A stretch of DNA of 64,000 nt, taken from contig CAYXYJ010000003.1 in the NCBI GenBank assembly GCA_964469295.1, positions 12,595 through 76,594 of the forward strand, read 5' to 3'. The notes below the pieces were generated by a model. That model was given only the letters and a program-made list of their open reading frames with translations, was not told where the DNA came from and ran no database searches. This stretch comes from an uncultured Candidatus Saccharibacteria bacterium. GTDB lineage: Bacteria; Patescibacteriota; Minisyncoccia; Phycocordibacterales; UBA918. Made by a program: the position numbers and the translations under genes. Numbering within the stretch: position 1 is the first letter of the stretch; every line of letters starts with the position of its first letter. Of the stretch, positions 27,539-63,141 are shown in pieces.

Positions 27539-27543
27539 TTACT

Positions 27544-28167: not shown

Positions 28168-28172
28168 AATGT

Positions 28173-29969: not shown

Positions 29970-29983
29970 TATACTAGTGACAT

Positions 29984-30634
29984 ATGGCCGAACCGCGCTA
30001 CCAAACTATCGATAGTGATTTTCGTGATGAGCAAGAAAAGCGAACTGGATTTGGCATCAGAAACGCTCAAATGCAAACCGGCAACGTACGCCAACAACCA
30101 AGACAATTAATGGCAGAAGAGGGGAAATCCCCAACACCAACCCGACCAGGGAAAATGAGTGTCCCAAAATCAAGCGCTTTCGGTAGTCCAAAAAAACTGG
30201 CGGTTAATCGAGCCAAAGCAACAGCCACCACCCTCCAAATCGTATTATGGGCCGTTGTGCCATCGTTTTTTGTGTTTATTGTCTGCATTGTTTGTTTAAT
30301 AACCTTTGGTGCCTACAATATGACCCCAACCTGGATTCAAGAAGGGGTAAACAAAGTAGCATATATACTCGGTTGGCAACAAGACGTCCTCCAAACGTTG
30401 TTTTGGATTACGTATATCATACAAATGGTAACGGTCCTTACTATCATGGCTGGTGTTGTTGCTCATTATTCCATTCGGGGTGTCCGGTGCTTGGGGGGAA
30501 GAGAGGCTGGTGTGTTTAAAAAAATGATTTTTGGCATGATGGCTGTTTTTTGTTTTATTCCAGGCACGCCGATACTTGTCATACCAATTTTTGGTACCTG
30601 TTGGATGTTATTGGTTTGCGCCTATCCCAACTAA
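29984..30634 (+). CDS. Hypothetical membrane protein (4 predicted TM helices)
   Basis: An N-terminal ~90-aa soluble basic region is followed by four hydrophobic helices. Confidence 0.4.
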   Translation: MAEPRYQTIDSDFRDEQEKRTGFGIRNAQMQTGNVRQQPRQLMAEEGKSPTPTRPGKMSVPKSSAFGSPKKLAVNRAKATATTLQIVLWAVVPSFFVFIVCIVCLITFGAYNMTPTWIQEGVNKVAYILGWQQDVLQTLFWITYIIQMVTVLTIMAGVVAHYSIRGVRCLGGREAGVFKKMIFGMMAVFCFIPGTPILVIPIFGTCWMLLVCAYPN

Positions 30635-30675
30635 CCACTCGTAGAGTGACTAGTCGATTGCTATACTTATGATGT

Positions 30676-31638: not shown

Positions 31639-31640
31639 TT

Positions 31641-32819: not shown

Positions 32820-33945
32820 CCGCGGTACATTTTTTGTAGCTGGCCTCATTACCATTATCTGGTGTGGTTTTTTTACTGTAGCTTTGGCTGCTGACTATGT
32901 ACCACTCGTGAATATCCCGGCGGTCGCCAACCCCAACAACATCAACGACTATATTAACGCGTTATATAATTTATCGATTAGTATCGCGGCCTTGATTGCG
33001 GTGGTCAAGATTGTTATCGCTGGTGCCAAGTGGATGTTTGGAAGTACTTCGATTAGTAGTATTCAAAGTGCGAAACAAGACATTCAAAATGCGTTAATTG
33101 GGTTGTTGATTATTATTGGTGCCGTGTTGATTCTAAATACTATCAATAGCGATTTGACCAACCTCACCATTTTTGATGAAAGTGATAGGGTAGTGGTAAA
33201 TGATACGCCGTCCAATGGTTTGTTTGTCACTATGGATCAAATAAAGGCAGCTTGTGAAGAAAATCCTGAGGCTATGGATTGTAGCCTGGAAATACGTTGC
33301 AATGACAATGACATTGGTAACTTCATTTTTGGTAGCGCGTTTTGGGGAAATATGGAATATATAACTAATCCCAACGATATTAGCTTAAGTTGTGGAGTGA
33401 TTTGCAAAAACATCGGTGGATATATGGATTACGGCTTGGCAATAGACGGAACAGACGCAAAGTGCCATATCAGTAAAACTTTAATGAACAATTTAATTAG
33501 CGACTATTTTGAAAAATTAGTGACAGATCAATGCTCATCTGGACGGGTTGATGGTGAAATCTGTCAGATTGAACTTTGTAGTGAACACGACTTAAACAAT
33601 AATACCTACAATGGAAATAGCCAACAAGATTTTAGTAGATGCGAAGCAGAATGTCTAGAAGAAAGACAGGGCTCTTATTTTGACACTCGTAGTGGTGCTT
33701 GTATATTTACGGGTGATTATTACCTGACCGAGGAAGAATGTTCGGAACGCGTTCATATGACCTGGTCTGACGAAGAAAATGTTTGTTATGACCAAACCAC
33801 GACTCAAAGCATTGCGTGTGATTTCTTTGAAAGTACTGGTACCTATGATTGTAGTATAGCGAGAGGCGAGTGTATTGATAATACTGATGTACCAGGAACA
33901 CCAGTTACCGCTGCCGACGGGCGATCTATTTACTGTGTACAGTAG
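32803..33945 (+). CDS. VirB2/TrbC-like pilin-type module fused to a ~260-aa Cys-rich extracellular domain
   Basis: Signal peptide ending ALA-ADY, then two hydrophobic helices (LSISIAALIAVVKIVIAGAKWMF and ALIGLLIIIGAVLILNTI). This is the classic T4SS pilin topology in the first ~125 aa. A domain with more than 20 Cys follows (CEENPEAMDCSLEIRCNDND...CIDNTD...). Overlaps the upstream gene by 17 nt. Confidence 0.4.
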   Translation: MTSIINRGTFFVAGLITIIWCGFFTVALAADYVPLVNIPAVANPNNINDYINALYNLSISIAALIAVVKIVIAGAKWMFGSTSISSIQSAKQDIQNALIGLLIIIGAVLILNTINSDLTNLTIFDESDRVVVNDTPSNGLFVTMDQIKAACEENPEAMDCSLEIRCNDNDIGNFIFGSAFWGNMEYITNPNDISLSCGVICKNIGGYMDYGLAIDGTDAKCHISKTLMNNLISDYFEKLVTDQCSSGRVDGEICQIELCSEHDLNNNTYNGNSQQDFSRCEAECLEERQGSYFDTRSGACIFTGDYYLTEEECSERVHMTWSDEENVCYDQTTTQSIACDFFESTGTYDCSIARGECIDNTDVPGTPVTAADGRSIYCVQ

Positions 33946-33962
33946 TTAGCGTCTCTATACAT

Positions 33963-34694
33963 TTATCGATGCTTGCGAACAATGAGTTCCTGCACCACCA
34001 TGGTGAGGTTACTAACAATAAAATATAACGCGATGGCGGCTGAGAAGGTGTAGGAAATGAACGTCGTAAAGATTGGCATGACGTATTTCATCTGCAACTG
34101 CATATTGCGCATAAAATCATCTTTAAAATCTGCCGTTTCACCAGACTTTTTTGGTGGTAATGTAGGCAATGATAGCGACGTACTGGCAAACTGCGTAATC
34201 CCTGCAAGAAGGGCCAAGGCCAGACTCGCTTCGGCGATATTAAAGTGACCCAAAAATAACATCGATATTTCATCCGGCATCGGAACAAACGAATATAAAA
34301 TTTCCGGATTAATATTTGGTAGTTTGATACCACCACTACCATACATCGCCACAATACCTAAAGCAATAATCACCGGAAGCTGGATAAACAGCACAAGAAT
34401 ACTGGCAAACGGACTGACTCCGGCCTCTTTATATAATTCCATCATCGCTTTCGCTTGCGCTTCACGGTTGTCTTTGTGGGAGAGTTTAATTTCTTTAAGT
34501 TTTGGTTCAATCTCACGCATTGCTTTTTGTGTTTTCACCATTTTAATTGACAGTGGAAAGAGGAGTACCTTGACCCCAATAACGGTCGCAATAATCGCTA
34601 ACCCCACATCGCCGTGCGGAAAAACATCCAAAAAGAAAACGAGGGTGTTGTAAATTGGATCAAAGAAAAACGAGTGCCAAATAAATGAAAACAT
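33963..34694 (-). CDS. yidC: YidC/Oxa1-family membrane protein insertase (short form)
   Basis: 243 aa; GLAIIATVIGVKVLLFPLSIKMVKTQKAMREIEPKLKEIK is typical of the YidC core; downstream of rnpA. Confidence 0.8.
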   Translation of the reverse strand: MFSFIWHSFFFDPIYNTLVFFLDVFPHGDVGLAIIATVIGVKVLLFPLSIKMVKTQKAMREIEPKLKEIKLSHKDNREAQAKAMMELYKEAGVSPFASILVLFIQLPVIIALGIVAMYGSGGIKLPNINPEILYSFVPMPDEISMLFLGHFNIAEASLALALLAGITQFASTSLSLPTLPPKKSGETADFKDDFMRNMQLQMKYVMPIFTTFISYTFSAAIALYFIVSNLTMVVQELIVRKHR

Positions 34695-35568: not shown

Positions 35569-36975
35569 ATGCTTGGTACGTTACCTTCCTGTATGCAACC
35601 AACCACTCATCAACCAACAAACAGCATCGTCCGTACCGAACAGATTGACGTAAAAAAACTGTGGGATGATGCGTTGGTAAAAATTGAGTTGGGAATTACT
35701 CCCGCTAATTTCAAAACTTGGTTTCGCGATACTCAAATTATTTCACTTGAAGATGGTACTCTCACGATTGGTGTGCCTAGTGTCTTTGTACGTGATTGGT
35801 TGCAAGACAAATTTCAATCAATGATTTTAAAAACTCTCCGTGAATTAACTCCCTATGTGCGGAGCCTCGAATATGCCGTGGTACAACGGAGTGATCGACG
35901 GACAGAAACTACTAAGACTCAAACCATCAACGCTGCGTTGCCACTTGAAGATTATTACATCAATAAAAGTGATAACTTAAATCCAAAATATTCTTTTGAA
36001 AATTTTGTGGTTGGTCCCTACAATGCACTGGCTCACGCTGCGGCCAAAACTGTATCGGAAAAACCTGGTATTGCTTATAATCCACTGTTTATTTATGGAA
36101 AAACCGGTCACGGTAAAACTCACTTGATTCAAGCGGTGGGTAATCAAATCAAAAAAACTGGCAAAAAAGTATTTTATGTAACCAGTGAACGCTTTGCAGT
36201 TGATTATTTTAATGCCCTCCAAAGTGGCAGTGCCAATAGTTTCAAAGATAAATACCGCCAATATGATGTTCTCATCATGGACGATGTACAATTTTTAGCC
36301 ACCAAGGAAAAAACTCAAGAGGAATTGTTTCATCTTTTTAATGCTCTCCATGATACGAACAAACAAATCGTTTTCTCGAGTGATATGCACCCAGCATTAT
36401 TATCTGGCATGGAAGATCGATTGCGATCGCGGTTTGCTCAGGGAATGATTGTTGATATTCCAACCCCAGACACCGAATCCCGCGCCGCGATTTTGCGTGC
36501 CAAAGCGGCCCAAAACAGCATTACTTTAAGTGACGATGTAGTGGAACACCTCGCCACCACCATCGAAGGAAATATCCGTGAACTAGAGGGGGCGTTAAAT
36601 ACTATTATGTGTCAGTCACAACTACTTGGTCGGACACTTACGATTGATGAAGTAAAAGCTATCATCAAAAACAGCTCTCGTCCGCGCAAAACCCTCGCAG
36701 TTGGGGATGTGGTTGATAAAGTGGCTCGGTTTTTCGACATCGACGCGGCCAGTATTTACGAAAAAACCAGACGAAAAGAAGTAGTGAAGCCCCGACAAAT
36801 TATCATGTTTATTTTACGGGAAGACTTCCAGGTATCATATCCCGCCATTGGTAAAAAATTAGGTGGTCGCGACCACACCACAGTTATTCATTCCTGTGAA
36901 AAAATTAAACACGATATCAAACTTGATAAAGAACTTGAAGAGGAAATTACCCAAGTGCGATTACTCCTTAAATAA
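35569..36975 (+). CDS. dnaA: Chromosomal replication initiator protein DnaA
   Basis: AAA+ core GKTGHGKTHL, LIMDDVQFL, and C-terminal DNA-binding helix ...MFILREDFQVSYPAIGKKLGGRDHTTVIHSCEKI. The annotated start lies 7 nt after a -10 box, so the true start may be the ATG at 35593. Confidence 0.95.
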   Translation: MLGTLPSCMQPTTHQPTNSIVRTEQIDVKKLWDDALVKIELGITPANFKTWFRDTQIISLEDGTLTIGVPSVFVRDWLQDKFQSMILKTLRELTPYVRSLEYAVVQRSDRRTETTKTQTINAALPLEDYYINKSDNLNPKYSFENFVVGPYNALAHAAAKTVSEKPGIAYNPLFIYGKTGHGKTHLIQAVGNQIKKTGKKVFYVTSERFAVDYFNALQSGSANSFKDKYRQYDVLIMDDVQFLATKEKTQEELFHLFNALHDTNKQIVFSSDMHPALLSGMEDRLRSRFAQGMIVDIPTPDTESRAAILRAKAAQNSITLSDDVVEHLATTIEGNIRELEGALNTIMCQSQLLGRTLTIDEVKAIIKNSSRPRKTLAVGDVVDKVARFFDIDAASIYEKTRRKEVVKPRQIIMFILREDFQVSYPAIGKKLGGRDHTTVIHSCEKIKHDIKLDKELEEEITQVRLLLK

Positions 36976-37354: not shown

Positions 37355-38449
37355 ATGAAAGTAACGGTCAATCAACAAGAACTCATCAACACCCTTGAAC
37401 TCTTAACACGGGTGAGTACCAAACACGTCACCTTACCTGTGTTGCAGTGTGTTCATATTAAAACGTTTGATACGAAAATAGTTTGTACTACCACCAATCT
37501 TGAAATTAGTATTGAATCACCAGTAACAGCAACCGTAATCGAAGCTGGTGTGGTAGCGGTCTACGCACAAACTTTATTACAGTCAATTCAATATAATACC
37601 CAAAAAGACATCACCTTAACGGCAGTTGATGGGGTGTTAAAAATTGAAAGTGGGCGAAGTGTTACAAAAATTAATACAATGGTGGCTGATGATTTTCCGA
37701 TTATTACTCACCTTGAAACCACAGGGGTGATGGTAAAAAGACAAACATTTGCTCTTGGTATTAAAACTGTTGCTTTCGCAGCGTCGGTATCATCTATTAA
37801 GCCAGAATTAGGAAGTGTCTTTATTCAACAAAAAAAAGAACATTCCCTTACCTTTGTAGCGACTGATTCATTTCGTTTAATGGAAAAAACCGTGCCACAA
37901 CAAGGGGTGATATTATCACAATCGCTTCTCGTTCCACAAAAAAATGCGATTGAATTAGCGCGGGTGTGTGAGGTGTTAACGGAAGATCCTGAACTTCTGG
38001 TTACTGATAATCAATGTGCTTTACGGTTTCCGAATGGGGTGTATGTTATTTCTCGCTTGGTAGCAGGAACTTTCCCTGATTATGAAGCAATTATTCCAAA
38101 AGAATATACCACTCATGTAACAGTGTTAAAACAAGACTTGGTGCAGTGTTTTAAAAAGACACAAATTTTCTTAAATAAATTTATGCAGGTGACTCTTGGA
38201 GTGTCTGATGGATCTTTGTTAGTATCGTCTCAAAACGGTGAATTAGGTACTACCGAAGATGTTGTGCGTGTGGATACTGAGGGATCTCCGTTAACACTTA
38301 ATTTTAATCAGCAGTACGTTCTTGATCCACTTTCACATATTACCGACGACAGTATTGTTTTACATTTTGCTGGGATTGGCAGACCGTTGGTATTAGGAGG
38401 GGTGGCTGATATATCTTTGCGGTATTTAGTGATGCCGATGAATCGATAA
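37355..38449 (+). CDS. dnaN: DNA polymerase III beta subunit (sliding clamp)
   Basis: 364 aa with three-domain clamp organisation. N-terminus MKVTVNQQELINTLELLTRV. Position immediately after dnaA. Confidence 0.9.
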   Translation: MKVTVNQQELINTLELLTRVSTKHVTLPVLQCVHIKTFDTKIVCTTTNLEISIESPVTATVIEAGVVAVYAQTLLQSIQYNTQKDITLTAVDGVLKIESGRSVTKINTMVADDFPIITHLETTGVMVKRQTFALGIKTVAFAASVSSIKPELGSVFIQQKKEHSLTFVATDSFRLMEKTVPQQGVILSQSLLVPQKNAIELARVCEVLTEDPELLVTDNQCALRFPNGVYVISRLVAGTFPDYEAIIPKEYTTHVTVLKQDLVQCFKKTQIFLNKFMQVTLGVSDGSLLVSSQNGELGTTEDVVRVDTEGSPLTLNFNQQYVLDPLSHITDDSIVLHFAGIGRPLVLGGVADISLRYLVMPMNR

Positions 38450-45432: not shown

Positions 45433-45479
45433 AAACGACAAACGCGGACGGCCCAAAGGGCCGTCCGCGTTTGTCGTTT
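45433..45479. terminator. Terminator aaacgacaaacgcggacggccc-aaa-gggccgtccgcgtttgtcgttt
   Basis: A perfect 22-bp palindrome directly after the pilB stop. Confidence 0.8.
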
Positions 45480-47209
45480 TACACGATGTGAGAAAAAAAG
45501 TCGTCATCATGGTCATCGCTTTTTGTATCCGTCACGACGCGCCGACTTTGATTAACATCAACAACCCGTTCCAATTCGTCAAACGTCGTCAGGCCAGATA
45601 ATACTTTAATTAATCCATCTTGAAGCATGGTGGGAATATGTTGTGGCAAGGCTGCGTCAAGTATCATGTGTTCTCGTGGGTCACGAATGACAATGTCTTC
45701 CACTCGATCATCCATCGCAATAGCTTCAAATACGCCGACCCGACCAGAAAATCCAGTATGACCACACGCATCACAACCGACACTGTCGTACACCACCGTA
45801 TGACCATCTATTGTTACTGGCTCGGGGTAAGAACTCAGTGCTTTTTTTGCCATGGTAATTTCTTCGGTTGAAATTACTCGGGGTTTTTTACAGTGTTCAC
45901 AGAGAACGCGAACCAAACGTTGCCCTAACATAATATTAAGTGAACTACTAATAATACGAGGGTCAACGCCTAAATCAATTAAGCGAGGGAATCCACCGGC
46001 GGCGCTGTTGGTGTGGAGGGTAGAGAAGACAAGGTGTCCCGTTTGAGCGGCGTGAATCGCCGTTTCCGCTACTTCACGATCACGGATTTCGCCAATCATA
46101 ATGATATCGGGGTCTTGACGTAAAATCGCTCGCAAGCCTGACGCAAAAGAATAATCTGGACCGGTTTGGGTTTGTACAATACCATCAAGTTTATATTCAA
46201 CCGGGTTTTCAATCGTAATGATTTTTTTCTCACTATCATGTACCGCCCGTAAAAAGGCATACAGCGCAGTGGTTTTTCCGGAACCAGTTGGGCCGGTGGT
46301 AATAATGAGTCCGTTTGGACGTTTTAACTCTTGTTCCATTCTGGCCCGTAAAAACGGATTAAGGGCCAGTTTATCCATACTGAAACTGGCTACTCCCGGA
46401 TCAAGTAATCGCATAACGATTGATTCGCCGACAGCGCCCGGAATGATTGAACTACGTACTTCAATGGCTCGTTCGCCAAACACAAATTCAAACCGACCAT
46501 CCTGGGCTTCTTTCCGTTCGTTTAGCCGCATGCCCGACAGTAATTTCAAACGTGACATCAAGCGACCGTACAAATGATTGTCAATAGTGGCGACATCTAA
46601 AAGCACACCATCAAGACGATATCGTAAACGAATATGTTGTTCGGTTGGTTCAATATGAATATCTGAAGCACGCAACGCGAGGGCTCCGGCAAACATCAGT
46701 TCGAGAGTTTCGGAAATGCGGCGCGGACTATTAATGCGTGATACCGTATCAATAGCGGTGGCGACATCCTCGATGTTTTCCATGGTATGTGCGCGTCGCA
46801 AAATATCATCAGGATTGATATCCAATACCCCTTTTTTGCTTGCGGTGGTGGTTTTTTGGTCAGCATATCGGGCCAATCCGTGATCAATACTGGCGGTAGA
46901 GGCGATGTGGGGTAGCACGGTAAAGCCCTTTTTTTCTAGGAGCGCCAAGGCGGCTTTGGTAGCAGTATCATTCGGGCGATTAACTGCTACTGACAAAGTA
47001 TTCCGCATTAACGCAAAGGCCACCAGCCGTGATTCTTTGGCAGTTCGTTCAGGAATTTTCATGAGTGCTTCGGGATTGATGGTGACACCAAATAAATTGA
47101 CATACGGAATCCCGTACTGTGGTGCCAGGGCACGCAAATATTCTTCTTCGCCCCGTTTTCGTAAATCAGCGATGTGCGAAAGAGCGTTTGTATCATTAAA
47201 ATCTACCAT
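45479..47209 (-). CDS. Type II/IV secretion system ATPase GspE/PilB family
   Basis: N-terminal T2SSE_N-like domain, Walker A GPTGSGKTT, Asp box, Walker B, and a CxxC...CxxC tetracysteine motif (CEHCK...CDACGHTG); 576 aa. No other pil or gsp genes adjacent. Confidence 0.85.
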   Translation of the reverse strand: MVDFNDTNALSHIADLRKRGEEEYLRALAPQYGIPYVNLFGVTINPEALMKIPERTAKESRLVAFALMRNTLSVAVNRPNDTATKAALALLEKKGFTVLPHIASTASIDHGLARYADQKTTTASKKGVLDINPDDILRRAHTMENIEDVATAIDTVSRINSPRRISETLELMFAGALALRASDIHIEPTEQHIRLRYRLDGVLLDVATIDNHLYGRLMSRLKLLSGMRLNERKEAQDGRFEFVFGERAIEVRSSIIPGAVGESIVMRLLDPGVASFSMDKLALNPFLRARMEQELKRPNGLIITTGPTGSGKTTALYAFLRAVHDSEKKIITIENPVEYKLDGIVQTQTGPDYSFASGLRAILRQDPDIIMIGEIRDREVAETAIHAAQTGHLVFSTLHTNSAAGGFPRLIDLGVDPRIISSSLNIMLGQRLVRVLCEHCKKPRVISTEEITMAKKALSSYPEPVTIDGHTVVYDSVGCDACGHTGFSGRVGVFEAIAMDDRVEDIVIRDPREHMILDAALPQHIPTMLQDGLIKVLSGLTTFDELERVVDVNQSRRVVTDTKSDDHDDDFFSHIV

Positions 47210-53434: not shown

Positions 53435-53593
53435 ATTTATATTTTATATATAGTATACGCGTAATTATGCGTGCGGTCACGTCGGTGGTGAAAATTGGTC
53501 ATGATTAAGGAATCAGTGTTAAAGTACACTCGTAAAAACCAAAAACCTGCATCATTGCTGACGCAGGTGGTGGGTGGGGGCTAGCCCCCACCC

Positions 53594-53941
53594 TTAGTTC
53601 GTGGTCGTTGCCGGTTTCGGAAGCAGGTCGGGAACCGGTTCGTAGACGTCGAACCGGAAGCCGTCGCGGGTGGTTTGTCCAGCGAGGCGGAAGGTAGCAA
53701 TCCTCCCGTCTGCCATCGACCCGCGAGTCGGCGGCAGGGTAATGTTTCCGCAGACGTCGGCGACGACCGGGATTTCGATCAGATCGAAATTGGGGAAGGT
53801 ATCGCCAGCCGGGGCGAGAAAGGTGTACTCGGCCGGCTCGTTCCAGGTGCAAGCGGCGCTGTCCGCGAGGGTCAGCGCCGCGGCGGTTTCGGTGCTGATG
53901 GTCGCAGCCATGAGCACCGTGGTCAGAAGCAGATGCTTCAT
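53594..53941 (-). CDS. Small secreted hypothetical protein in a GC-rich (~62-65%) island
   Basis: MKHLLLTTVLMAATISTETAAALTLA is a signal peptide. GGAGG RBS 5 nt upstream of ATG (53939-53941). Terminator hairpin gggtggggg-ctag-cccccaccc at 53564-53587. Surrounding DNA is ~35-45% GC. Two conserved Cys. Confidence 0.55.
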   Translation of the reverse strand: MKHLLLTTVLMAATISTETAAALTLADSAACTWNEPAEYTFLAPAGDTFPNFDLIEIPVVADVCGNITLPPTRGSMADGRIATFRLAGQTTRDGFRFDVYEPVPDLLPKPATTTN

Positions 53942-54050
53942 TTGGTCCTCCAAGAGCTCGCTAGACCATCGCGGACACCACAGGTGTGGGCCGGACTAGC
54001 GATTGAACATATTATATACCATATCCTAGACATTTTGTAAAGTACCTTGT

Positions 54051-55025
54051 TTGGTGTGCATAAATATGGCGATATTTTACGCCGTAATTTCGTATACTTA
54101 CGGTATGGATATCGATACATCAGACGCAGTGATTTATGAAAAGAAACAGCTCCCTAAAGGGGTAAAAAAATGGGGATTTATTATCATTTGTACCGTTGGA
54201 GTAGTCGCTGCGTTGTGGTATGGCTGGCGGTGGAATAGCGAACGGGAAATCACCGCTTTGCAGGAAGGTCTCTCACTGGTTGAAGTACCCCCAGAGATGA
54301 TTCACCAGCAACCGGTAGGATATTTGGTGTATGAAGCACCGGATAATTTTTTACCTAAATCACTGGCCGAGCAATTTAACATGATGCCGGGTGAAACTAC
54401 GAACCTAGCGAGTGAAGACGATGAAGAATTGTCTCTCGTGCGTGATAATGACGATGCTCCAATAATTGCGAAAACTACTCCTGAATTGCCAAAACTGTGG
54501 TGGATGCGTGATATCCGTAACAATCTCGATATTCAGGTTGCTGCTGACGACGTCCGGCTAGAAACAACCAATAATTGGTCTATTGAAAATGGTGCCGTGA
54601 TGCGTCGTAACGATGACGGCACGGTGGCGTCGTATGTGCGCGAGGGCGACAATACGCCATTGACGCACTCACTCATCACATCCTCATATGATGAGAGTTA
54701 TATATTTGTAGCCAATCAGCAAATGAATACGCTTACGGTGTATGCGGTGGATCCAGAAAGACCACTCTTGCCGTTGGTCTATACGACGACAGTCGCGCAT
54801 GGCGATATTGTATCAATAACAACCGCACCGGATTTAAATCGGGTAGTCATCGTCACGACCAATAAAATCGGCACTTTCCTTTCGTATTATGATGCGTACA
54901 GCGATCGGGTGATTAAACAAGAACAGTTAGCAGATATGGCCACTCCGGTGACATTATTGGATTGGGTAACAATTAATCCTGTCGCTTCAGATTTACTTGA
55001 AGTAATTGAAGTGGAAGGAAATTAA
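54051..55025 (+). CDS. N-terminally TM-anchored extracytoplasmic beta-rich protein (hypothetical), module copy 1
   Basis: KWGFIIICTVGVVAALWYGW is an anchor. Stop overlaps the start of the giant gene (TAATG), indicating translational coupling. Confidence 0.45.
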   Translation: MVCINMAIFYAVISYTYGMDIDTSDAVIYEKKQLPKGVKKWGFIIICTVGVVAALWYGWRWNSEREITALQEGLSLVEVPPEMIHQQPVGYLVYEAPDNFLPKSLAEQFNMMPGETTNLASEDDEELSLVRDNDDAPIIAKTTPELPKLWWMRDIRNNLDIQVAADDVRLETTNNWSIENGAVMRRNDDGTVASYVREGDNTPLTHSLITSSYDESYIFVANQQMNTLTVYAVDPERPLLPLVYTTTVAHGDIVSITTAPDLNRVVIVTTNKIGTFLSYYDAYSDRVIKQEQLADMATPVTLLDWVTINPVASDLLEVIEVEGN

Positions 55026-57922
55026 TGTATGACTATTGTATGCGTATTTTAACTGAAAAATTTTCCGTTGCCTTTATTATCATGGTGCTGCTGGTACCTT
55101 ACATTACCTATGCATATCCAGCGGGAACACCTTCTTGGGATGATTGGGATGGTGATGGTAATCGATGGACTCATGGTGAAGATAATGATGGTTGGACTTC
55201 GTCTGGAGGTGGTGGTGGAGGTGGAGGTGGGGGGAACAACAATAATCCTCAAACTGTTGAAATTGATAGAAATCTCGGTACAACAGCTAATGTGCAAACA
55301 AATCGTCCGGGCGCAGATTACGTTTTGAGTCATACTCAAGTAATCAATGGTAGAACTTACCAAATATACGATTATACAGGAACCGTACGACCAGTGTTAC
55401 CAGGACAATCAAATCCTAATCCAGCCGGTTTTGTTGCTGTATTAATAAATGATAATAATGATAATGGTCACAGTTGCTCAGCATCGCGTCCCAATCTGGT
55501 GATTGAAGATATTTACCTAGTCCGTACTTCTTCTTCGAGCGAGGATGTGGATGAAGTTAATCTCGGTACAGATATCGAATATCGTCCGTATGCAATTGTA
55601 CGTAATACTTCATGTAAAAGCACAAATAGTTCTGGAAATAATCTTAGCTTACCAAGTGTCGCAGCGAGCGGTTCATTTCCTGTACGACTCCGCATTGATT
55701 ACAACAGTACTGATACGGCCAATCCATCATATGAGTACACCGAACAAATTGGTTTTGTTGGGCCGCTTGGGGGAAACATGAGCATGGCGGTAGCTTTTGA
55801 TCCAGTGACATTTACGAGTTTAGCGAGTCATGTATTTCAGGTGACTGCCGACCCTATTGCCAATCAGCAAAGTTTTGAGACCTGCACGGGCGGTGTGGGG
55901 TGTATCCGGGAAAGTAATGATACTGATAATACTCGCACTGAAACGTTCCGCACAACGCCACCAAGTGTGACGGTTGGGTCGTTTGTGTGGAGCAGTAATG
56001 TGCGTTTAAGTAGCAGTAACAACTATTGGACGACCTGGGATCATTTGACGACACCAGTTCGTGATATGGTCGCCCGGCCGCTCGCCAGTAGTGATCACGA
56101 AGTGGGAATTTATTGGATTGGGAATAAGGTTAATCTCGACCAGTGTACCGGTGTTGGTATTAATAATGATTTGCGTAATACCGCCGATTGGTGGCGAGTG
56201 AATTGGACGGGTTCTAACCATAGTGAGTCAAGATTTTGGGCTGGCCGCAGAGCTAGTGGCGCGTATCCATCGTGGCCAATGGGCTTTTGGTCGGGTGGTG
56301 ACAATTGGGACATTCGGCCGGTGGGGGGGACGATGGAGCAAAAATTAGCGTTTGCTGATAATAAAATCTTTTGGCGGGGTAGTGAGCAATACCATCGGAC
56401 GATGGCAGTGTTTGTGAACCGTGGCTTCCGTCAGGCGGTAGCGGCGGGTAATTATCATGAATATACCGTAACCTGTCCGGCCTATAATGGATCGACGGTA
56501 TCTGATACCCATATCGTCCGGAATGGGACGAGACCGGGGGTGACGTTACCAGTGTCTCTTCAGCCAAATTTACCCGACGTGACAGTGACAGCGGGAGAGG
56601 TGGTAGACCGAGTGCCATTTACGATTCAGAATAATGGGGCGGAAGCCATTTCGGGGATGACCTACACCCTCACTATTAATGGAGTAGCGGTGCATACGGT
56701 AGCGAGTAGTTCACGGGTCACCGCTGGCGGATTATTATCTACTCGTCCGGTAGTGAATTGGACGGCGCCAAATAACGCCCGAAATGTACCCATGGAGTTG
56801 TGCGTGAATCACCCGGGGCGAGCGACGACAACTCCAATCTGTGATCGAGGGGTGATAACAGTTACGGCTGTTCCGACTCACCCATTATCGTGCGATACAT
56901 TCACCATCAGTGACAATACATTAGAAGCTGGCCAAACCGCGACGGTGACTTGGTCAACCAGTAACGCTACATTTGCTACACTACAAGATACGTTAAATGG
57001 CACAACAATGATGGTGGGTGCTAGTGGAACTAGTCCGGCTATCATCTTCAGTCAGAACGCCAATCTTCGTCTCACTGCTTTTCGCGGAGCTGAACGACAA
57101 TCATGTCCAGACATTTTTGTTCAGGTGACTCCAGCGACCAACCCAGATCTCGCGGTAGCAAATTTCACAATTTCTACCTGTACGGATGAAGTGGCAACCA
57201 ATTGCCCAACTACCACTTGGCAGGCAACGGTGCAAAACATTGGTATTACCGCTACCCAGACAGCGCCATATGTACTGCAACGTCGCGTCGGTCCGGCGAC
57301 CTGGACAACCGTAGCGACGGGTAATATTCCCGCATTAGCCATCAGCGCGTCAACGCAAATCAGTGGCACTGTACGCAATATTGTTCCTGGTAATTATGTT
57401 TGGCGGGTGATCGTCAACGAGCCAGAACGGTATCCGGAAGAAACTCGGGCGAATAATATTAGCAATCCGGTTAATTTCATCATCACGCAAATACGAACAC
57501 CGCAATGTAGCGATGGTGATGATAATGATGGTGACGGCTATACCGACCGTAACGATTCTGGCTGCCGTCCCAATCCTAATGAACCGGAAGGACCAACAAA
57601 CACCTACGATCCCGACGACGATTCCGAAGCCGTCGTCGATAATCCCCAAATTACTATTACGGCCAACCCTGCTATTATCCGGTATGGTGATACGGCGACA
57701 ATTGAGTACAGTATTAGTAATCCTAATCCACTGACGTGTACCATGACTGGTCCCGGTATGCCTACAACCATTACCTATCCAGGCAATGTTGGACCAAGTG
57801 AAGCGTTGCAAGGAACGCATATTTCTGCACCACTGACGAGTACCCAAACATTCACTATTACCTGCGGCGCTACTCGAGCTCAGACTACTGTGGAAGTGAT
57901 TCCACTCGCACAGGAAATTTAA
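55025..57922 (+). CDS. Giant secreted surface protein (965 aa) with Gly10 linker, beta-sandwich repeats, CARDB-like domain and Ca-binding-like CSDGxDNDGDG motif, module copy 1
   Basis: N-terminal hydrophobic signal; SSGGGGGGGGGGNNNN; CARDB-like PDLAVANFTISTC...NIGITAT...; PQCSDGDDNDGDGYTDRNDSGC. The last ~33 aa are encoded by sequence identical to the 3' end of 59739..62519. Confidence 0.55.
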   Translation: MYDYCMRILTEKFSVAFIIMVLLVPYITYAYPAGTPSWDDWDGDGNRWTHGEDNDGWTSSGGGGGGGGGGNNNNPQTVEIDRNLGTTANVQTNRPGADYVLSHTQVINGRTYQIYDYTGTVRPVLPGQSNPNPAGFVAVLINDNNDNGHSCSASRPNLVIEDIYLVRTSSSSEDVDEVNLGTDIEYRPYAIVRNTSCKSTNSSGNNLSLPSVAASGSFPVRLRIDYNSTDTANPSYEYTEQIGFVGPLGGNMSMAVAFDPVTFTSLASHVFQVTADPIANQQSFETCTGGVGCIRESNDTDNTRTETFRTTPPSVTVGSFVWSSNVRLSSSNNYWTTWDHLTTPVRDMVARPLASSDHEVGIYWIGNKVNLDQCTGVGINNDLRNTADWWRVNWTGSNHSESRFWAGRRASGAYPSWPMGFWSGGDNWDIRPVGGTMEQKLAFADNKIFWRGSEQYHRTMAVFVNRGFRQAVAAGNYHEYTVTCPAYNGSTVSDTHIVRNGTRPGVTLPVSLQPNLPDVTVTAGEVVDRVPFTIQNNGAEAISGMTYTLTINGVAVHTVASSSRVTAGGLLSTRPVVNWTAPNNARNVPMELCVNHPGRATTTPICDRGVITVTAVPTHPLSCDTFTISDNTLEAGQTATVTWSTSNATFATLQDTLNGTTMMVGASGTSPAIIFSQNANLRLTAFRGAERQSCPDIFVQVTPATNPDLAVANFTISTCTDEVATNCPTTTWQATVQNIGITATQTAPYVLQRRVGPATWTTVATGNIPALAISASTQISGTVRNIVPGNYVWRVIVNEPERYPEETRANNISNPVNFIITQIRTPQCSDGDDNDGDGYTDRNDSGCRPNPNEPEGPTNTYDPDDDSEAVVDNPQITITANPAIIRYGDTATIEYSISNPNPLTCTMTGPGMPTTITYPGNVGPSEALQGTHISAPLTSTQTFTITCGATRAQTTVEVIPLAQEI

Positions 57923-58084
57923 TCACAATTACCTAACATCAACCGCCTGTTCTGGAGAGAACAGGCGGTTGATGTTATTCGTTCATGAGTAAGAGATTTC
58001 GTAAGATCAAAGATATAAAAATCACACCAATGAAAGTGTGATAGTGGGGGTGCGGGCGGTGCGAATGCATCGCCCGCAATGCGC

Positions 58085-58396
58085 TTAGAGCAGGCACTCA
58101 TCGCGCTGCGAGAGCGCGATGTAGCCCTTGACCTCACCGTCTTCTTGAAGAGCGAAAACGATGGGATGGCCATAGTGACCCCAGTCTTCGATGGCCGCCG
58201 CCGCAGCCCAGGCCATTTCTTCGGTGTCGAAGATGACATGGGTCCGGCCACGGCCGTCAACGAAGTCTTGAGACAGGGCAACGATATGCCCCATGTCACC
58301 GGCGGTCAGACACCGCACCGGGGCATCGGCAGCCACGGCGGTAGCAAAGGTAGCGGCGAAGAGTGTCGCCACCATGGCAGTGAAGGCGTTATTCAT
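58085..58396 (-). CDS. Small secreted hypothetical protein in a second GC-rich island
   Basis: MNNAFTAMVATLFAATFATAVAADA is a signal peptide. AGGAG RBS 7 nt upstream. Local GC is far above flanks. A GC hairpin lies downstream at ~58058-58080. Unrelated in sequence to the 53594 gene. Confidence 0.5.
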   Translation of the reverse strand: MNNAFTAMVATLFAATFATAVAADAPVRCLTAGDMGHIVALSQDFVDGRGRTHVIFDTEEMAWAAAAAIEDWGHYGHPIVFALQEDGEVKGYIALSQRDECLL

Positions 58397-58642
58397 CTTC
58401 TTCTCCTAGGAACTCGTCGGATCGCTGTAATAGCTATAAAGAAATTACCCGACGATTGAACTTATTATATAGCACACATGTATTGATTTGTAAATACTGC
58501 ACTTATATATTGAGGTGTTTTGGTAGTTATTTAATTTTGTCACGGACAGCGCAGATTGAAAGTGGATAATGATTATATTGGGGAGTCATAATCGTTATAC
58601 TGGAGTTAATAACACTAACAGCGTTAATTCCATTACTATATT

Positions 58643-59737
58643 ATGAACCCCGAAACTGATGCCGCATTTAGCGGCGAACGAATCAAACTCACTCCAGGCG
58701 AACGTTTTCGTCAAATTGTCATGGTGGTGGGAATAGTTTTGCTCGTCATAGTTGGAGCCAGTAGTTGGTATGTGTGGCACTGGCAACAGACACAGCCAGT
58801 TACGGTGATTAGCCATGGTCTCGAAGAGACCCAGGTGCCAACTAAAAATTTTCTAGTTGGGCAACTGTATTTTAGTGCTATCAGATCTGATGATGACACT
58901 GCTGCACCGTATATATACAAGAAAGATTTCACTGACGATTATATAAATCGAGCATTTGATTTTTCTGCTCTTTCTTATGCGTACAGCAATACACAATACG
59001 ACACAATGGTGACATATATTAATGAATCAGTTGATCCTGATGGACTGCAATTAATTTGGAGAGATCGGCAGACGGGAGAAACTGGGACGCTACCTCGCCT
59101 TACGGGATATTCGGAAATGGAATTAACGGTTTCACCAGATAATATTTATTACGCCTATTCTTATCTTGAAACTGCAGCTAAAAATCCTTCCCAACTAACT
59201 GATTGGGATATAGTACTGATAAATTCTGATACGTTAAAAATTACGGTGGTTAACGGAGCCATGGAACCGCACTTTACTGCTAATGGAAAGTATTTGTACT
59301 ACATGAAAACTGACGGTATTTACCGATATGATATTGAAACAGAGACTCACACATTGGTAAGTAATATCTATCAAGATCTGACTCCAATTGATGATTACAC
59401 TATTTCTGATAATGGTAATGTGCTGGTATTTACTTCACCATCACTGCGTACTATTTCGATACAAGAATTAGATGCAGAGGGGCACAGCACTGAAGTTGGC
59501 GCTGAAGTCGGGGTCGCGGTGCGGTATCGTCAACCGATGATGAGTCCGGATGGAGAAACGTATATTGTGATGGTCGCTAGAGATAACGATTTTGATACTA
59601 CGACACAAACGTATCATACGGTTTTCGGCGAGATTCGTTCATTGTATGGCAAAACAGTTCTTGATACTGTGCCATTTACGGGATTTGTACCTGGTTCGGT
59701 ACAGTTAAATGAATGGAGAGATGATATCCAAAATTAA
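58643..59737 (+). CDS. N-terminally TM-anchored beta-propeller-like protein (hypothetical), module copy 2
   Basis: FRQIVMVVGIVLLVIVGASSWYVW is an anchor. It is rich in Y/D/T repeats (PD40/TolB-like impression only). Stop TAA is 1 nt before the next ATG. Confidence 0.45.
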   Translation: MNPETDAAFSGERIKLTPGERFRQIVMVVGIVLLVIVGASSWYVWHWQQTQPVTVISHGLEETQVPTKNFLVGQLYFSAIRSDDDTAAPYIYKKDFTDDYINRAFDFSALSYAYSNTQYDTMVTYINESVDPDGLQLIWRDRQTGETGTLPRLTGYSEMELTVSPDNIYYAYSYLETAAKNPSQLTDWDIVLINSDTLKITVVNGAMEPHFTANGKYLYYMKTDGIYRYDIETETHTLVSNIYQDLTPIDDYTISDNGNVLVFTSPSLRTISIQELDAEGHSTEVGAEVGVAVRYRQPMMSPDGETYIVMVARDNDFDTTTQTYHTVFGEIRSLYGKTVLDTVPFTGFVPGSVQLNEWRDDIQN

Positions 59738-59738
59738 T

Positions 59739-62519
59739 ATGAAAAATCACCATATGAAACTTAAAATATTTTTTTTCGCCATCTCAGCCATTATTGTGCT
59801 TAGTGTTACTCCATCAAACGCACTCGCTACTGTTGGTGGCCCAACCGAAGTAGGACAAACTGGGTCGGTAACAAATGACGGTTACTTTCAAAATTTTGAT
59901 ACCGGACGAGAACATCTCATTCAATCATCATACGATCAGGCTCGTGATATGGGGAATGTGATTGCGGCAGCCACGGGTCATAATGTCGTAACAGTTTTTG
60001 CGTTGCAAAATGCACGTACTGGAGCCATTCAAGGTTATATTGTTGTGACTCGGTATGTGCCACCAATCGCCACGAGCGGCAGTCGGGATGATGACACTTG
60101 CGATAGTGCTCCCGGTGTAGGATTTAGAGACGATTCAATTAGATTTATCCGTATTACTGATGGGATGCCGGTTGATCGAACGGCGTTATTAACCAATGTA
60201 CCGTATCGCGTGACCGCGGGTGTACAAAACAGTAATTGTTGGCCAACCAATGGTATTTCTCGGTACCACTATAATGACAGCGCGTGGTATACCGGTACGG
60301 AATTTGTCCGTATTAATAATCCGGCTCAATCGTATGGGCAACCACCAGCTAACCGTGGAAACACACCGTATCGTAACCAATTACCGTTTGGTGAAAATGG
60401 TACATTTCCAGTGGAAATCCAAATTGATGAAGGTGACAATGGATCAGTGGATACACGAATGAGCATTAATCAAGTCGGTCCACTTGATGGACAAAGTGGT
60501 TCTAAAACGCATATGATTGCTACAGATAGCAATCTCGACACCCCACGGCAATATCCCTATGAACATTTCTATGTGCACCCGAATACGCTTGATGTGCCAA
60601 CCGGGTACACTACCTTAAATATAAACTCACTCGATCCAACCGAGGGGACTTTTACGCATTCAATGTGGCGATCGCTCCCGTTTGCAGATAGTCGTTGGCG
60701 TATGGGTCCTGGGATAACGGTGATTTCACCAGTGGTGGAATTTGATACAGCCACCACTGGTCGGGTGCGGGCGTACACTGATGTGGGTTGTGGCGGATCA
60801 TTTGGGTGCATCGTTGGGAGTTCAGATGGACAAGGGTTGGATTTTCGAGTGCTTGGTGCACCACAAATAACATTGGGATCGTATATTATTGGGAATAACA
60901 CAATTACTGACGTCAGTACGCGTGAACGACGAGACGTTACTGCCGGACAACAAATTGGTTTGTATTGGAGCGGGAGCAATGTTGATGTAAGTACCTGTAC
61001 TGGTCGAGTGCGATTAGAAAATGGCAGTACCGACAACGATTTTACGGCAGTTGGTGATACGACTGGCCTGACCGCCAATCAGTTGTTACTTATCCCCGCT
61101 AATACCAGTCGTATTGATTCCACTATTACTGAACCGACGACACAATACCGAACATATACCATTACCTGTGGCGTGGCTGGTGGTGGAGATACTGTGTCTG
61201 ATAGTATTATTTTATCCAACGGACCATTATCAGCTACGGTGCAACTTGACCCATTACTGGCAAATATGAGTGTGGCGTATCCCGATACCATCACTTCTAT
61301 TCCGTTTCGTGTACACAACGCTGGGACAATTGGGGTAAATAACTTTACCTATACCTTCACCATTGATGGCCAAACGTATCCGTCTGGGGCGTTTGCTGGT
61401 AGTTTACCAATCGCTACTAATTCTGACGTTTTGTATGGTGTAGTTAATTACCAAGTACCGTTGCGTGATGATGATACGTATACCATCCCAATGCGAGTCT
61501 GTGTGCAGCGTCCACAAATGACTACTGAACAATGCGACAATGCGACAATTACCGTGACCGTGGGGAGTACTATAGCTTCAGAATGTAGCGATGGTATTGA
61601 TAATCTGGATGAGGAAGATACTCTGGCCGATGCGGATGATCCGGGATGTTGGACCAATCCAACTGACCCAATGACGTATTATCCACAAGACACTTCCGAA
61701 ACGAATAATCGGGTTGATACAGCAGTGCCGGATTTGTTGGCAAGTGTTCGACCAATTGATGACTGTACCACCAATACTACTACCTGCTCGATGACGTATC
61801 GCGCTCGTATCAGTAACCTTGGTACCGCCACACCGGTAGGCGAACCGATTCCATATGTTTTTGAACGTCGTCTACGACCAACTGGTGCGTGGCAAACGAT
61901 ACAGACAGGAACCATAATCAATACTATCAATCAAGGAAATTACCGTGATGTCACATTCACTGAAACGTTGACTCTCGGTAATTACGAAGTGCGGGCCCGA
62001 GTAAATCAACCAACACCAAACAGTAATCTTCGAGAAACCATATTCACGAATAATACGAGTGGTCCGGTAGCGTTTACCGTGATGAGGGATGCTATCCCGC
62101 AGTGTTCTGATGGAGTGAACAATGACGCTCCCGAAGATACGTATATCGACGCCGCCGACCCTGGTTGCTGGGCGAGTTCAACCGATTCAACAACATATGA
62201 TCCAAATGATACTACCGAGTCGTTAGTTGTCGCGCCAACCATTACTATTTCGGCACGGCCACAAATCGTACGGTACAACGACACTGCTTCAATTACCTAC
62301 ACTATCAGAGGGGTGAATCCGGTGTCCTGTCAATTGACTGGTCCCGGTATACCGACAGCATCCATATCGTATCCAACGGTAGCCTCTGGCATAACCAATA
62401 CCATTACGGGAACGCACATTTCCGCACCACTGACGAGTACCCAAACATTCACTATTACCTGCGGCGCTACTCGAGCTCAGACTACTGTGGAAGTGATTCC
62501 ACTCGCACAGGAAATTTAA
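59739..62519 (+). CDS. Giant secreted surface protein paralog (~927 aa) with CARDB-like domain and two CSDGxDN...DPGC motifs, module copy 2
   Basis: Start set at MKNHHMKLKIFFFAISAIIVLSVTPSNALA (signal peptide). The track start 59709 overlaps the upstream gene. CARDB-like PDLLASVRPIDDCTT...; motifs SECSDGIDNLDEEDTLADADDPGC and PQCSDGVNNDAPEDTYIDAADPGC. C-terminus identical to 55025..57922. Confidence 0.55.
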   Translation: MKNHHMKLKIFFFAISAIIVLSVTPSNALATVGGPTEVGQTGSVTNDGYFQNFDTGREHLIQSSYDQARDMGNVIAAATGHNVVTVFALQNARTGAIQGYIVVTRYVPPIATSGSRDDDTCDSAPGVGFRDDSIRFIRITDGMPVDRTALLTNVPYRVTAGVQNSNCWPTNGISRYHYNDSAWYTGTEFVRINNPAQSYGQPPANRGNTPYRNQLPFGENGTFPVEIQIDEGDNGSVDTRMSINQVGPLDGQSGSKTHMIATDSNLDTPRQYPYEHFYVHPNTLDVPTGYTTLNINSLDPTEGTFTHSMWRSLPFADSRWRMGPGITVISPVVEFDTATTGRVRAYTDVGCGGSFGCIVGSSDGQGLDFRVLGAPQITLGSYIIGNNTITDVSTRERRDVTAGQQIGLYWSGSNVDVSTCTGRVRLENGSTDNDFTAVGDTTGLTANQLLLIPANTSRIDSTITEPTTQYRTYTITCGVAGGGDTVSDSIILSNGPLSATVQLDPLLANMSVAYPDTITSIPFRVHNAGTIGVNNFTYTFTIDGQTYPSGAFAGSLPIATNSDVLYGVVNYQVPLRDDDTYTIPMRVCVQRPQMTTEQCDNATITVTVGSTIASECSDGIDNLDEEDTLADADDPGCWTNPTDPMTYYPQDTSETNNRVDTAVPDLLASVRPIDDCTTNTTTCSMTYRARISNLGTATPVGEPIPYVFERRLRPTGAWQTIQTGTIINTINQGNYRDVTFTETLTLGNYEVRARVNQPTPNSNLRETIFTNNTSGPVAFTVMRDAIPQCSDGVNNDAPEDTYIDAADPGCWASSTDSTTYDPNDTTESLVVAPTITISARPQIVRYNDTASITYTIRGVNPVSCQLTGPGIPTASISYPTVASGITNTITGTHISAPLTSTQTFTITCGATRAQTTVEVIPLAQEI

Positions 62520-62534
62520 TCGATAAAGAGCACA

Positions 62535-62583
62535 ACTATAACCGAAGAGCCGCCGGGCTTGCCCGGCGGCTCTTCGGTTATAG
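62535..62583. terminator. 49-nt perfect palindrome ctataaccgaagagccgccgggc-ttg-cccggcggctcttcggttatag
   Basis: Lies between convergent giant gene 2 and ruvA. Shares the 22-nt core gccgccgggcttgcccggcggc with the hairpin at 50151-50174. Confidence 0.8.
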
Positions 62584-63141
62584 TTGTTGCAAGGCTGCTT
62601 TCACCAGAGTGGTAGTGCTGGCGTTTTGATCCATCGTGTCGAGCACCTGCCGTACTGATTGAGGATTGTATCCAAGTGCGAGCAAAGTATCAAAAGCATC
62701 CTGATACTGTGCATTTTTTATACCGGTAATTGGTGTCGCGATGATGGCGGTGTCAATTTTATCCTTGAGACCAAGGATAATTTTCTCGGCTGTTTTGCGA
62801 CCAAGACCAGCTAACGTGACTAACTGATCCGCATCATTGTTGCTCACTGCGGTCAAAATAAGCGTGCGGTCGGCTTTATCCAAAATATCCATAGCTGATT
62901 TTGGTCCAATTCCCGAGATGGTGAGTAATAACTCAAAAATTTCTAAATCATGTGGCGTGACAAATCCATACAAATCGTCAGCGGTTTCTCGTAGTGCGTG
63001 GTGGGTGTAGAGAGTCACGGTGTCGTGGGGGAGTAGTGCCGTTCGTTTCGGACACGTAACCAGATACCCTACACCGCTTCCGGTCATAATAACGGTTTCA
63101 GGGATGGTTTCTATGACGGTACCAGTGAGTCGACGAATCAT
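62578..63141 (-). CDS. ruvA: Holliday junction DNA helicase RuvA
   Basis: MIRRLTGTV... OB-fold N-domain, helix-hairpin-helix pair (ISGIGPKSAMDIL, LAGLGRKTAEKII), and C-terminal domain III. The track start at 63237 would overlap rpsT, so the internal Met at 63141 is preferred. Confidence 0.8.
   Translation of the reverse strand: MIRRLTGTVIETIPETVIMTGSGVGYLVTCPKRTALLPHDTVTLYTHHALRETADDLYGFVTPHDLEIFELLLTISGIGPKSAMDILDKADRTLILTAVSNNDADQLVTLAGLGRKTAEKIILGLKDKIDTAIIATPITGIKNAQYQDAFDTLLALGYNPQSVRQVLDTMDQNASTTTLVKAALQQL

Follow-up and report, generated by a model that had tools for sequence, protein, structure and literature searches.

A 64,000-nucleotide (nt) stretch of the genome of an uncultured Candidatus Saccharibacteria bacterium, hereafter the window, holds two adjacent modules in which a gene for a membrane-anchored, β-rich protein (the anchor) runs directly into a gene for a large, β-rich protein, with a small divergent gene for a secreted protein ahead of each pair. 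Our analysis suggests that anchor and large protein form a lineage-specific complex at the cell surface, in which a membrane-tethered propeller is combined with a large protein that docks through its C-terminal domain and turns its N-terminal domains outward to bind an external target, a reading to which we give a little better than even credence. Possibly, this complex has a role in host contact. At the level of sequence, the envelope-type architecture of the proteins, the tight coupling of their genes and the conservation of gene order and location are established.

Architecture of the two gene pairs

The six open reading frames (ORFs) proposed for this region in an initial annotation are all present. 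The first module (type A) consists of small1 (53594–53941, minus strand), anchor 1 (54051–55025, plus strand) and large protein 1 (55025–57922, plus strand; 965 amino acids (aa)), and the second (type B) of small2 (58085–58396, minus strand), anchor 2 (58643–59737, plus strand; 364 aa) and large protein 2 (59739–62519, plus strand; 926 aa). The large proteins had been called giant; their size is 926–965 aa. The proposed coupling of the anchor and large genes can be read directly in the sequence. At the first junction, GGAAATTAATGTATG, the stop codon of anchor 1 (55023–55025) overlaps the ATG of the large gene (55025) by one base in the string TAATG, and at the second, AAAATTAATATGAAA, the stop codon of anchor 2 (59735–59737) is followed after a one-base gap by the ATG of the large gene (59739), giving TAATATG. 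The start of anchor 1 is uncertain, with candidates at TTG 54051 (longest ORF), ATG 54066 (the deposited protein, P0008) and ATG 54105 (alignment with the orthologue in locus L002). The slot that holds both modules is bounded by a Mur-ligase gene on one side and ruvA on the other, and its contents vary between genomes.

Both anchors are single-pass proteins with a short, positively charged N-terminal tail and a β-rich ectodomain: in anchor 1, a short cytoplasmic tail and one transmembrane helix precede this ectodomain, and in the AlphaFold model of anchor 2 the cytoplasmic tail and a transmembrane helix (residues 18–50) are followed by a low-confidence linker and a β-propeller, with a predicted local distance difference test (pLDDT) score of 70–89 over residues 190–340. 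A Foldseek search with this model, the fold test being run on anchor 2 only, gave 639 matches in the PDB (E ≤ 0.001); among the 50 listed, almost all were β-propellers, led by 3scy and including TolB (2ojh) and WD40 proteins. A profile of both anchor types also matches 3scy in the PDB by sequence (E = 2.9 × 10−5), and sub-threshold Pfam matches point the same way, with PD40 (PF07676) reaching 19.1 of the required 20.9 bits in anchor 2 and the 7-bladed propeller family PF10282 12.6 of 21.7 bits in anchor 1. The ectodomain of anchor 2 thus models as a β-propeller. Its fold class is that of the TolB/PD40 and lactonase propellers; unlike these, the anchors are tethered by an N-terminal transmembrane helix, have no Tol–Pal context and score under the family cut-offs.

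The large proteins share an architecture in which an N-terminal signal or transmembrane segment is followed by a low-complexity Gly/Asn stretch, β-sandwich domains, an acidic Cys-bounded motif and a C-terminal Ig-like domain that ends in VEVIPLAQEI in large protein 1. The acidic motif, which had been noticed as CSDGxDN...DPGC, is real: in the form CSDGxxND...GC it occurs once in large protein 1, as the double-Cys motif CSDGDDNDGDGYTDRNDSGC (57504–57575, plus strand; found by regular expression), whereas large protein 2 has two to three copies of it (from 61582 and from 62101). It matches the acidic double-disulfide repeat NF033662 of NCBIfam below the cut-off of 41 bits, at 27.2 bits in large protein 1 and 35.2 bits in large protein 2, which we read as a motif in common with that family and not as membership of it. 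A CARDB-like domain, also proposed previously, can be found in both large proteins but remains sub-threshold in Pfam (PF07705), reaching 19.6 bits in large protein 1 (residues 707–813) and 21.4 bits in large protein 2 (residues 510–547) against a cut-off of 22.7; it appears at E ≤ 0.1 in two of the seven members of the large-protein family. The structural model of the large protein is all-β, with a mean pLDDT of 41.6 and a better-defined C-terminal β-sandwich at residues 875–961. Foldseek matched this model to tandem β-sandwiches at a template modelling (TM) score of ~0.1 and to nothing more specific, and a sequence search of the PDB with the large-protein profile gave no matches.

Known sorting, structural and defence systems do not account for the locus. 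An LPXTG motif with hydrophobic segment and positive tail is absent, both large proteins ending in ...TVEVIPLAQEI followed by a stop codon, and neither protein matches Por_Secre_tail or another type IX secretion system (T9SS) C-terminal domain at E ≤ 1 in Pfam and NCBIfam scans. As the anchors (N-termini MNPETDAAFSGERIKLTPGERFRQIVMVVG... and ...KGVKKWGFIIICTVG...) have no type IV pilin or pseudopilin leader either, lacking both Glu at +5 and the pilin motif, we rejected sorting by sortase, T9SS or the pilin pathway. No S-layer family was matched in the Pfam and NCBIfam scans, and a defence system was dismissed on the grounds that none of the six proteins matches PADLOC-DB 2.0 at E ≤ 0.01. Altogether, no Pfam, NCBIfam, PADLOC or Rfam family is found above threshold for the locus, and the operon is undescribed in the literature that we searched, in keeping with the earlier statement that it is not a named system.

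Downstream of large gene 1, a repeat search detected a perfect 20-nt inverted repeat resembling a terminator hairpin (57934–57977). A second, perfect 27-nt inverted repeat (62532–62587) separates large gene 2 from ruvA, which runs towards it, and is likely a bidirectional terminator.

Old paralogy, gene conversion and distribution

The modules had been described as tandemly duplicated. They are indeed adjacent and, on pairwise alignment, homologous. The C-terminal ~490 residues of the two large proteins are 37% identical (BLASTP, E = 4 × 10−65), and their N-terminal halves align over 285 columns when each is represented by a profile including orthologues (hhalign probability 99.7%, E = 3 × 10−26). 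Only the first ~140 residues, containing the signal segment and the low-complexity linker, are unalignable, so the N-terminal two-thirds, previously described as diverged, are diverged but still homologous from about residue 140 on. For the anchors, BLASTP found only a 44-residue match (E = 6 × 10−5), while hhalign aligned residues 1–79, comprising the tail, the transmembrane helix and a juxtamembrane stretch (probability 94%, E = 1 × 10−7). Homology between the copies hence extends beyond the C-terminal block of the large proteins, and a 19-nt promoter element that the two modules have in common, described below, also speaks for it.

We consider the modules to be old paralogues, because the neighbour in the window is in each case less similar than an orthologue from elsewhere. 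Anchor 1 shares 42% identity with its counterpart in L002 and ~20% with anchor 2, large protein 1 is 45% identical to its orthologue P0005 (L002), and anchor 2 groups with P0007 (L003) and P0009 (L007). A fresh tandem duplication was rejected because the nearer relatives of each copy lie in other Patescibacteria; rather, sequence comparison indicates an ancient split between module types A and B, of which the window holds one each.

This old paralogy appears to have been patched later. The ends of the large genes share a tract of 113 nt (57812–57924 and 62409–62521, both plus strand) that is identical at 111 positions (98%), the two differences being T/C changes. Its surroundings are ~55% identical, the jump in identity is abrupt, and the tract ends just past the stop codon, a pattern that we interpret as recent gene conversion between the large genes. 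At the protein level, the last 90 residues of the window pair are 68% identical to each other, whereas identity to the orthologue is 49% for one and 32% for the other; those of the pair in L004 are 76% identical. These comparisons show, at the level of sequence, that the C-terminal domain evolves in concert within a genome in the window and in L004.

Other sources of diversity or mobility were considered and discarded. A diversity-generating retroelement was rejected, as we found no reverse transcriptase among 30 flanking ORFs of the window (Pfam) or the six proteins and no pair of template and variable repeats; the sole long repeat is the 113-nt tract, which lies in a conserved part of the gene. 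A phage or mobile origin was likewise rejected, since small1, small2 and the large proteins have no relatives in IMG/VR.

Relatives of the pairs are few. Among 5.8 billion proteins searched, the large protein matches, besides the window's own proteins, only P0005 and P0006, and the anchors match only P0007 and P0009. Further loci were obtained through pattern scans of species-representative genomes and metagenomes, and the named loci from these scans are metagenome-assembled genomes of Patescibacteria. About ten loci carry one or two anchor–large pairs, most of them in the slot between the Mur-ligase gene and ruvA. In L003 and L005, a single module, made up of a minus-strand small gene followed by anchor and large gene, occupies the interval from a Mur-ligase gene to ruvA/rpsT (S20), as in the window. 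L004 has two pairs just upstream of ruvA/rpsT, with an ORF in the Mur-ligase position upstream; in its second pair, the small gene is missing and the large protein is shorter. L009 also has two pairs upstream of ruvA/rpsT, the second again without a small gene, preceded by a small gene and a gene for a 332-aa membrane protein, with no Mur-ligase gene within the part that was fetched. The triad of L002 lies in another neighbourhood, L007 holds a partial triad, and in L012–L014 a shorter anchor-like protein and a large protein of ~600 aa are followed by two small secreted genes before ruvA. In L010 and L011, the C-terminal domain of the large proteins is carried by a repeat protein of 408–426 aa encoded between fusA and tuf. 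The order small (minus), anchor (plus), large (plus), surveyed in these relatives, recurs in L002, L003, L004, L005 and L007 and so is conserved outside the window. Within the family, the large proteins range from 367 to 1013 aa and the copy number is one or two pairs. By these searches the family appears to be specific to Patescibacteria and very rare.

Several relatives show the C-terminal domain in other settings. The L010 and L011 genes (5056–6282 and 4996–6276, respectively), inserted between fusA and tuf and followed by a gene for a small transmembrane protein, encode a secreted protein with repeated GYAWSSNIGWI motifs that ends in VELIPVAKEV or VEVIPVAQEV. The second large proteins of L004 (8591–9694) and L009 (2605–3951) are short, at 367–448 aa, and join the same C-terminal domain to an N-terminal domain of another kind (GYFDVADSSxCTVxGWAYDPD...), which suggests domain shuffling onto a constant tail.

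A proposed surface complex and its alternatives

In the mechanism that we propose, the propeller anchor and the large protein would be made in a fixed 1:1 proportion and would assemble into a complex at the cell surface. The conserved C-terminal domain would dock or retain the large protein, its receptor being either the propeller or a shared component of the envelope, and such docking could account for the concerted evolution of this domain within a genome. The N-terminal domains, which have diverged, would face outward and bind an external target, most plausibly the surface of a host cell, since cultivated Patescibacteria are epibionts attached to other microbes; we know of very few surface molecules through which this attachment occurs. 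The divergent small unit ahead of each operon, with its near-consensus promoter, 5′ stem, strong ribosome-binding site and double terminator, would be independent of the pair, and the small genes would be neighbours belonging to a fast-turnover class rather than obligatory subunits. The initial annotation had spoken of a diversifying surface or host-interaction cassette: the envelope and surface part of this description is supported by the transmembrane helix, the propeller model and the β-rich large proteins, while the inclusion of the small gene in the cassette is not.

Comparison with characterised proteins places the pairs near known surface molecules. PilX2, a β-propeller surface protein of the Saccharibacteria strain TM7x, is needed for efficient host binding (PMC11623550), so that a host-binding reading of the locus is reasonable, if not proven. 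Set beside the type IV pilus adhesins PilX2 and Pseudomonas PilY1 (PMC11623550), the anchors resemble PilX2 as Patescibacteria surface proteins that combine a hydrophobic helix at the N-terminus with a β-propeller at the C-terminus, but they lack the leader of pilins (G followed by [FM]xxxE), do not lie in a pilus locus and are paired with a large β-sandwich protein. With Ig/CARDB adhesins of the SdrD and PrgB type (PF07705), the large proteins share an export signal, a string of β-sandwiches, a variable N-terminal part, a conserved C-terminal part and weak CARDB matches, and the Foldseek list for the large-protein model includes PrgB Ig-like domains and SdrD. They differ from these adhesins in having neither an LPXTG/sortase signal nor a C-terminal hydrophobic segment, in their sub-threshold CARDB scores and in being coupled to a membrane propeller, a partner that such adhesins do not have. 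The C-terminal domain of the large proteins recalls the T9SS C-terminal domain of Bacteroidota in being an Ig-like domain of ~90 aa at the extreme C-terminus that is common to otherwise unrelated secreted proteins, here the large proteins and the repeat protein of L010 and L011, although the large proteins match neither Por_Secre_tail nor another sorting-domain model in Pfam and NCBIfam and, to our knowledge, Patescibacteria have no outer membrane. By analogy, the C-terminal domain of the large proteins may serve in sorting.

The main rival to the proposed complex, which we consider unlikely, is that the pairs build a structural layer of the envelope, such as an S-layer-like coat or its anchor, with the propeller as the anchor and the β-sandwich protein as the lattice subunit. 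The same architectural evidence fits this alternative equally, as do the location amid housekeeping genes, which many relatives conserve, and the presence of the C-terminal domain on several secreted proteins, which would suit attachment to a common envelope component. Against a core structural coat, however, stand the rarity of the family (two to three matches in 5.8 billion proteins), its fast change (orthologues are 30–45% identical), its variable copy number and length (367–1013 aa) and the lack of a match to any S-layer family.

Several observations also weigh against the surface complex that we favour. The localisation, interaction and binding of the proteins are inferred from sequence and models; the large-protein model is poor, its fold matches indicating only strings of β-sandwiches, and the CARDB, PD40 and acidic-repeat matches all fall under curated cut-offs. 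The ectodomains of the two anchors cannot be aligned by sequence. In L010 and L011 the C-terminal domain occurs without a propeller partner, which weakens the case for the propeller as its receptor. Finally, the L009 pair is not homogenised over the last 90 residues, with 34% identity, so docking through the C-terminal domain need not be genome-specific. The kind of locus itself is familiar, a surface-protein operon under duplication and gene conversion, here narrowly distributed and with a compositional oddity in the neighbouring small genes.

Small divergent genes and their composition

As far as can be read from their signals, small1 and small2 are real, separate one-gene transcription units, and probably strongly expressed ones. 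The products are secreted proteins of 115 and 103 aa, respectively, each with two Cys residues in the mature part and with no similarity to each other; as had been noted, they differ in sequence and have in common a hydrophobic, signal-like N-terminus and a GGAG-type ribosome-binding site. The promoter and 5′ untranslated region (UTR) of small1 (53942–54041, minus strand) consist of TTTACA (54041–54036), a 17-nt spacing, TATATAAT, then GTTCAATCG, a basal 7-bp stem and the ribosome-binding site GGAGGA. The equivalent region of small2 (58397–58494, minus strand) likewise has TTTACA (58494–58489), 17 nt, TATATAAT and GTTCAATCG, followed by a stem (CGUCGG/CCGACG) and the ribosome-binding site AGGAG. 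The 19-mer TATATAATAWGTTCAATCG sits in both divergent intergenic regions, occurring within the window only in the 5′ region of small1 and at 58453–58471, where 0.07 occurrences would be expected by chance. Among four sequences, the candidate 7-bp stem of the 5′ UTR carries changes on both sides (CGCUAG/CUAGCG against CGUCGG/CCGACG), with individual fold z-scores that are not significant. Two consecutive GC-rich hairpins follow small1 (53545–53593, minus strand), the second running into a T-run (terminator scan 53568–53545, and folding), and two follow small2 (58021–58075, minus strand), the distal one with a T-run (terminator scan 58042–58021, and folding); we interpret these T-run hairpins as intrinsic terminators.

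Relatives of the two genes differ in number. The small1 family has three metagenomic homologues in which both Cys residues are conserved, two of them more distant. The third, the syntenic orthologue in L015, is 74% identical, has the same promoter and 5′ UTR and adjoins a Mur-ligase gene. The orphan small2 has as its sole match among the proteins searched the copy of the same organism. Between the small-gene orthologues of L004 and L009, differences number 29, 24 and 49 at the first, second and third codon positions, and this ordering (third > first > second) argues that the small genes are protein-coding.

The initial annotation had viewed the small gene as part of a three-gene module, plausibly an adhesin with a cognate partner; in such a reading, the small secreted protein would be the partner or ligand and would co-diversify with the anchor–large pair. 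A small gene with a signal peptide does stand beside the pair twice in the window and also in L002, L003, L004, L005, L007, L009 and L012/L014, and the divergent intergenic regions of both window modules have a promoter element in common. However, the anchors and large proteins remain homologous, but the small proteins found at or close to their operons belong to at least seven families without relation to one another. No small gene accompanies the second pairs of L004 and L009, and the position and orientation of the small gene differ in L009 and in L012 (in L012/L014 it follows the large gene). Furthermore, the copy in L007 is cut short, and in L011 and L016 small, GC-rich genes for secreted proteins lie apart from any operon of this kind. 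A fixed three-component cassette is therefore distinctly unlikely in our estimate, and since they are missing from some pairs and belong to unrelated families, we do not count the small genes as obligatory parts of the module. A conserved 3′ boundary, of the kind expected of replaceable cassettes, was also rejected, as an alignment of the 3′ flanks showed nothing convincing. The truncated L007 gene (88–246, minus strand), an orthologue of the L003 small gene in which a stop leaves 52 codons, may be a decaying copy. Elsewhere, GC-rich, signal-like small genes are found in L011 (1456–1902, minus strand), in L012 (2493–3317, downstream of the operon) and throughout the L016 contig, where they lie in a cluster of small secreted-protein genes; as such genes occur away from or downstream of the operon, the class seems to be genome-wide in the lineage.

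The anomalous GC content ascribed to the small genes is borne out by a comparison of 200-nt stretches: small1 and small2 contain the highest-GC 200-nt stretches of the 64 kb, at 0.60–0.655 against a mean of 0.449 (standard deviation 0.052). Overall GC is 0.63 in small1 and 0.61 in small2, with values of 0.59, 0.52 and 0.78 at the three codon positions of small1. Third-position GC (GC3) is thus 0.78 in small1 (z = +7.6) and 0.69 in small2 (z = +5.8), compared with 0.42 ± 0.05 in 38 long ORFs of the window. The same holds for the small genes of L004, L005 and L009 (GC3 0.66–0.76, against 0.34–0.36 in their genomes), for those of L012 (0.67 and 0.70) and for the small1 homologues (0.59–0.74, in flanks of ~43–50% GC); the small gene of L003 is not GC-rich. 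We found no description of this anomaly in the literature searched.

The small genes could owe this composition to recent horizontal gain from a high-GC donor, such as an actinobacterial host or one of its mobile elements. The contrast of 0.69–0.78 with a genomic GC3 of 0.42, the Ala-rich signal peptides, the turnover of families at this position and one weak match of small1 to a Streptomyces repeat protein (45 residues, E = 1 × 10−8) all speak for it. Yet the small1 family itself sits in flanks of moderate GC, and L015 is syntenic, with the same promoter and Mur-ligase neighbour; small2 has no relative outside its own organism among the proteins searched, and IMG/VR holds none for either gene. 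Between the orthologues of L004 and L009, 49 of the 73 third positions are different, yet both genes remain GC3-rich (0.69–0.76) in genomes at 0.34–0.35, and third positions that have largely been replaced without loss of high GC3 argue against recent, un-ameliorated transfer, which we consider improbable. Codon bias linked to expression was rejected as well, because the highly expressed EF-Tu, EF-G, GroEL, GroES and S20 genes have GC3 values of 0.32–0.39.

Alternatively, the GC-rich islands could be structured non-coding RNAs or regulatory leaders, with the ORFs as by-products of high GC. GC islands in low-GC genomes are typical of structured RNA, several overlapping ORFs are open on both strands, and 10 of 13 small genes fold more stably than dinucleotide shuffles (z from −2 to −5.7, with −5.6 and −5.7 in the window), compared with −0.2 ± 0.84 for 16 control coding pieces. 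On the other hand, every copy, including the L003 copy that is not GC-rich, has a ribosome-binding site and a signal-peptide-like N-terminus, the substitution pattern is that of codons, and protein homologues at 44–47% identity conserve their Cys residues. Rfam finds nothing in the islands at gathering score or at E ≤ 1, on which basis a known RNA family was rejected. We therefore judge a purely non-coding role to be very improbable. Moreover, the L004, L005 and L009 genes are GC-rich with fold z-scores of ~0, so messenger RNA (mRNA) structure alone is no full answer to the high GC3 either.

We regard the GC3 of the small genes as being held by some force that acts on the nucleotide sequence itself. 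A more specific version, which we advance as a long shot, is that the composition is actively maintained through a second role of the nucleic acid, either as a very stable, dual-function RNA or through codon usage tuned to a high-GC host that receives the DNA or RNA.

Elsewhere in the window, a block of ORFs without Pfam match (21800–34000) surrounds a VirB4/TraG-like P-loop ATPase (28173–29969); it resembles a cluster of the type IV secretion type and adjoins yidC and the dnaA/dnaN origin region. With dnaA at 35569–36975, dnaN at 37355–38449 and a cumulative GC-skew minimum at ~32–33 kb, the window probably spans the replication origin. A 757-aa ORF without Pfam match (13228–15501) has an unusually strong AT skew (+0.22) and a negative GC skew, and a PilB-type (T2SSE) ATPase is encoded ~6 kb upstream of the locus (45479–47209, minus strand).

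The locus defines a compact, testable family, in which a membrane propeller and a large β-sandwich protein occur at a fixed chromosomal address, and its copy-number variation and homogenised C-terminal domain are properties expected of host-range determinants. The small genes, with a GC3 of 0.66–0.78 in genomes whose other genes sit at 0.32–0.42, would, if the pattern is general in the lineage, offer a natural case for learning what holds synonymous sites off the genomic norm, whether the structure or stability of the mRNA, biased gene conversion or some more unusual cause. Should their codons prove to be tuned to a host, the near-consensus promoter and the neighbouring surface-contact operons would be part of a toolkit for host manipulation.

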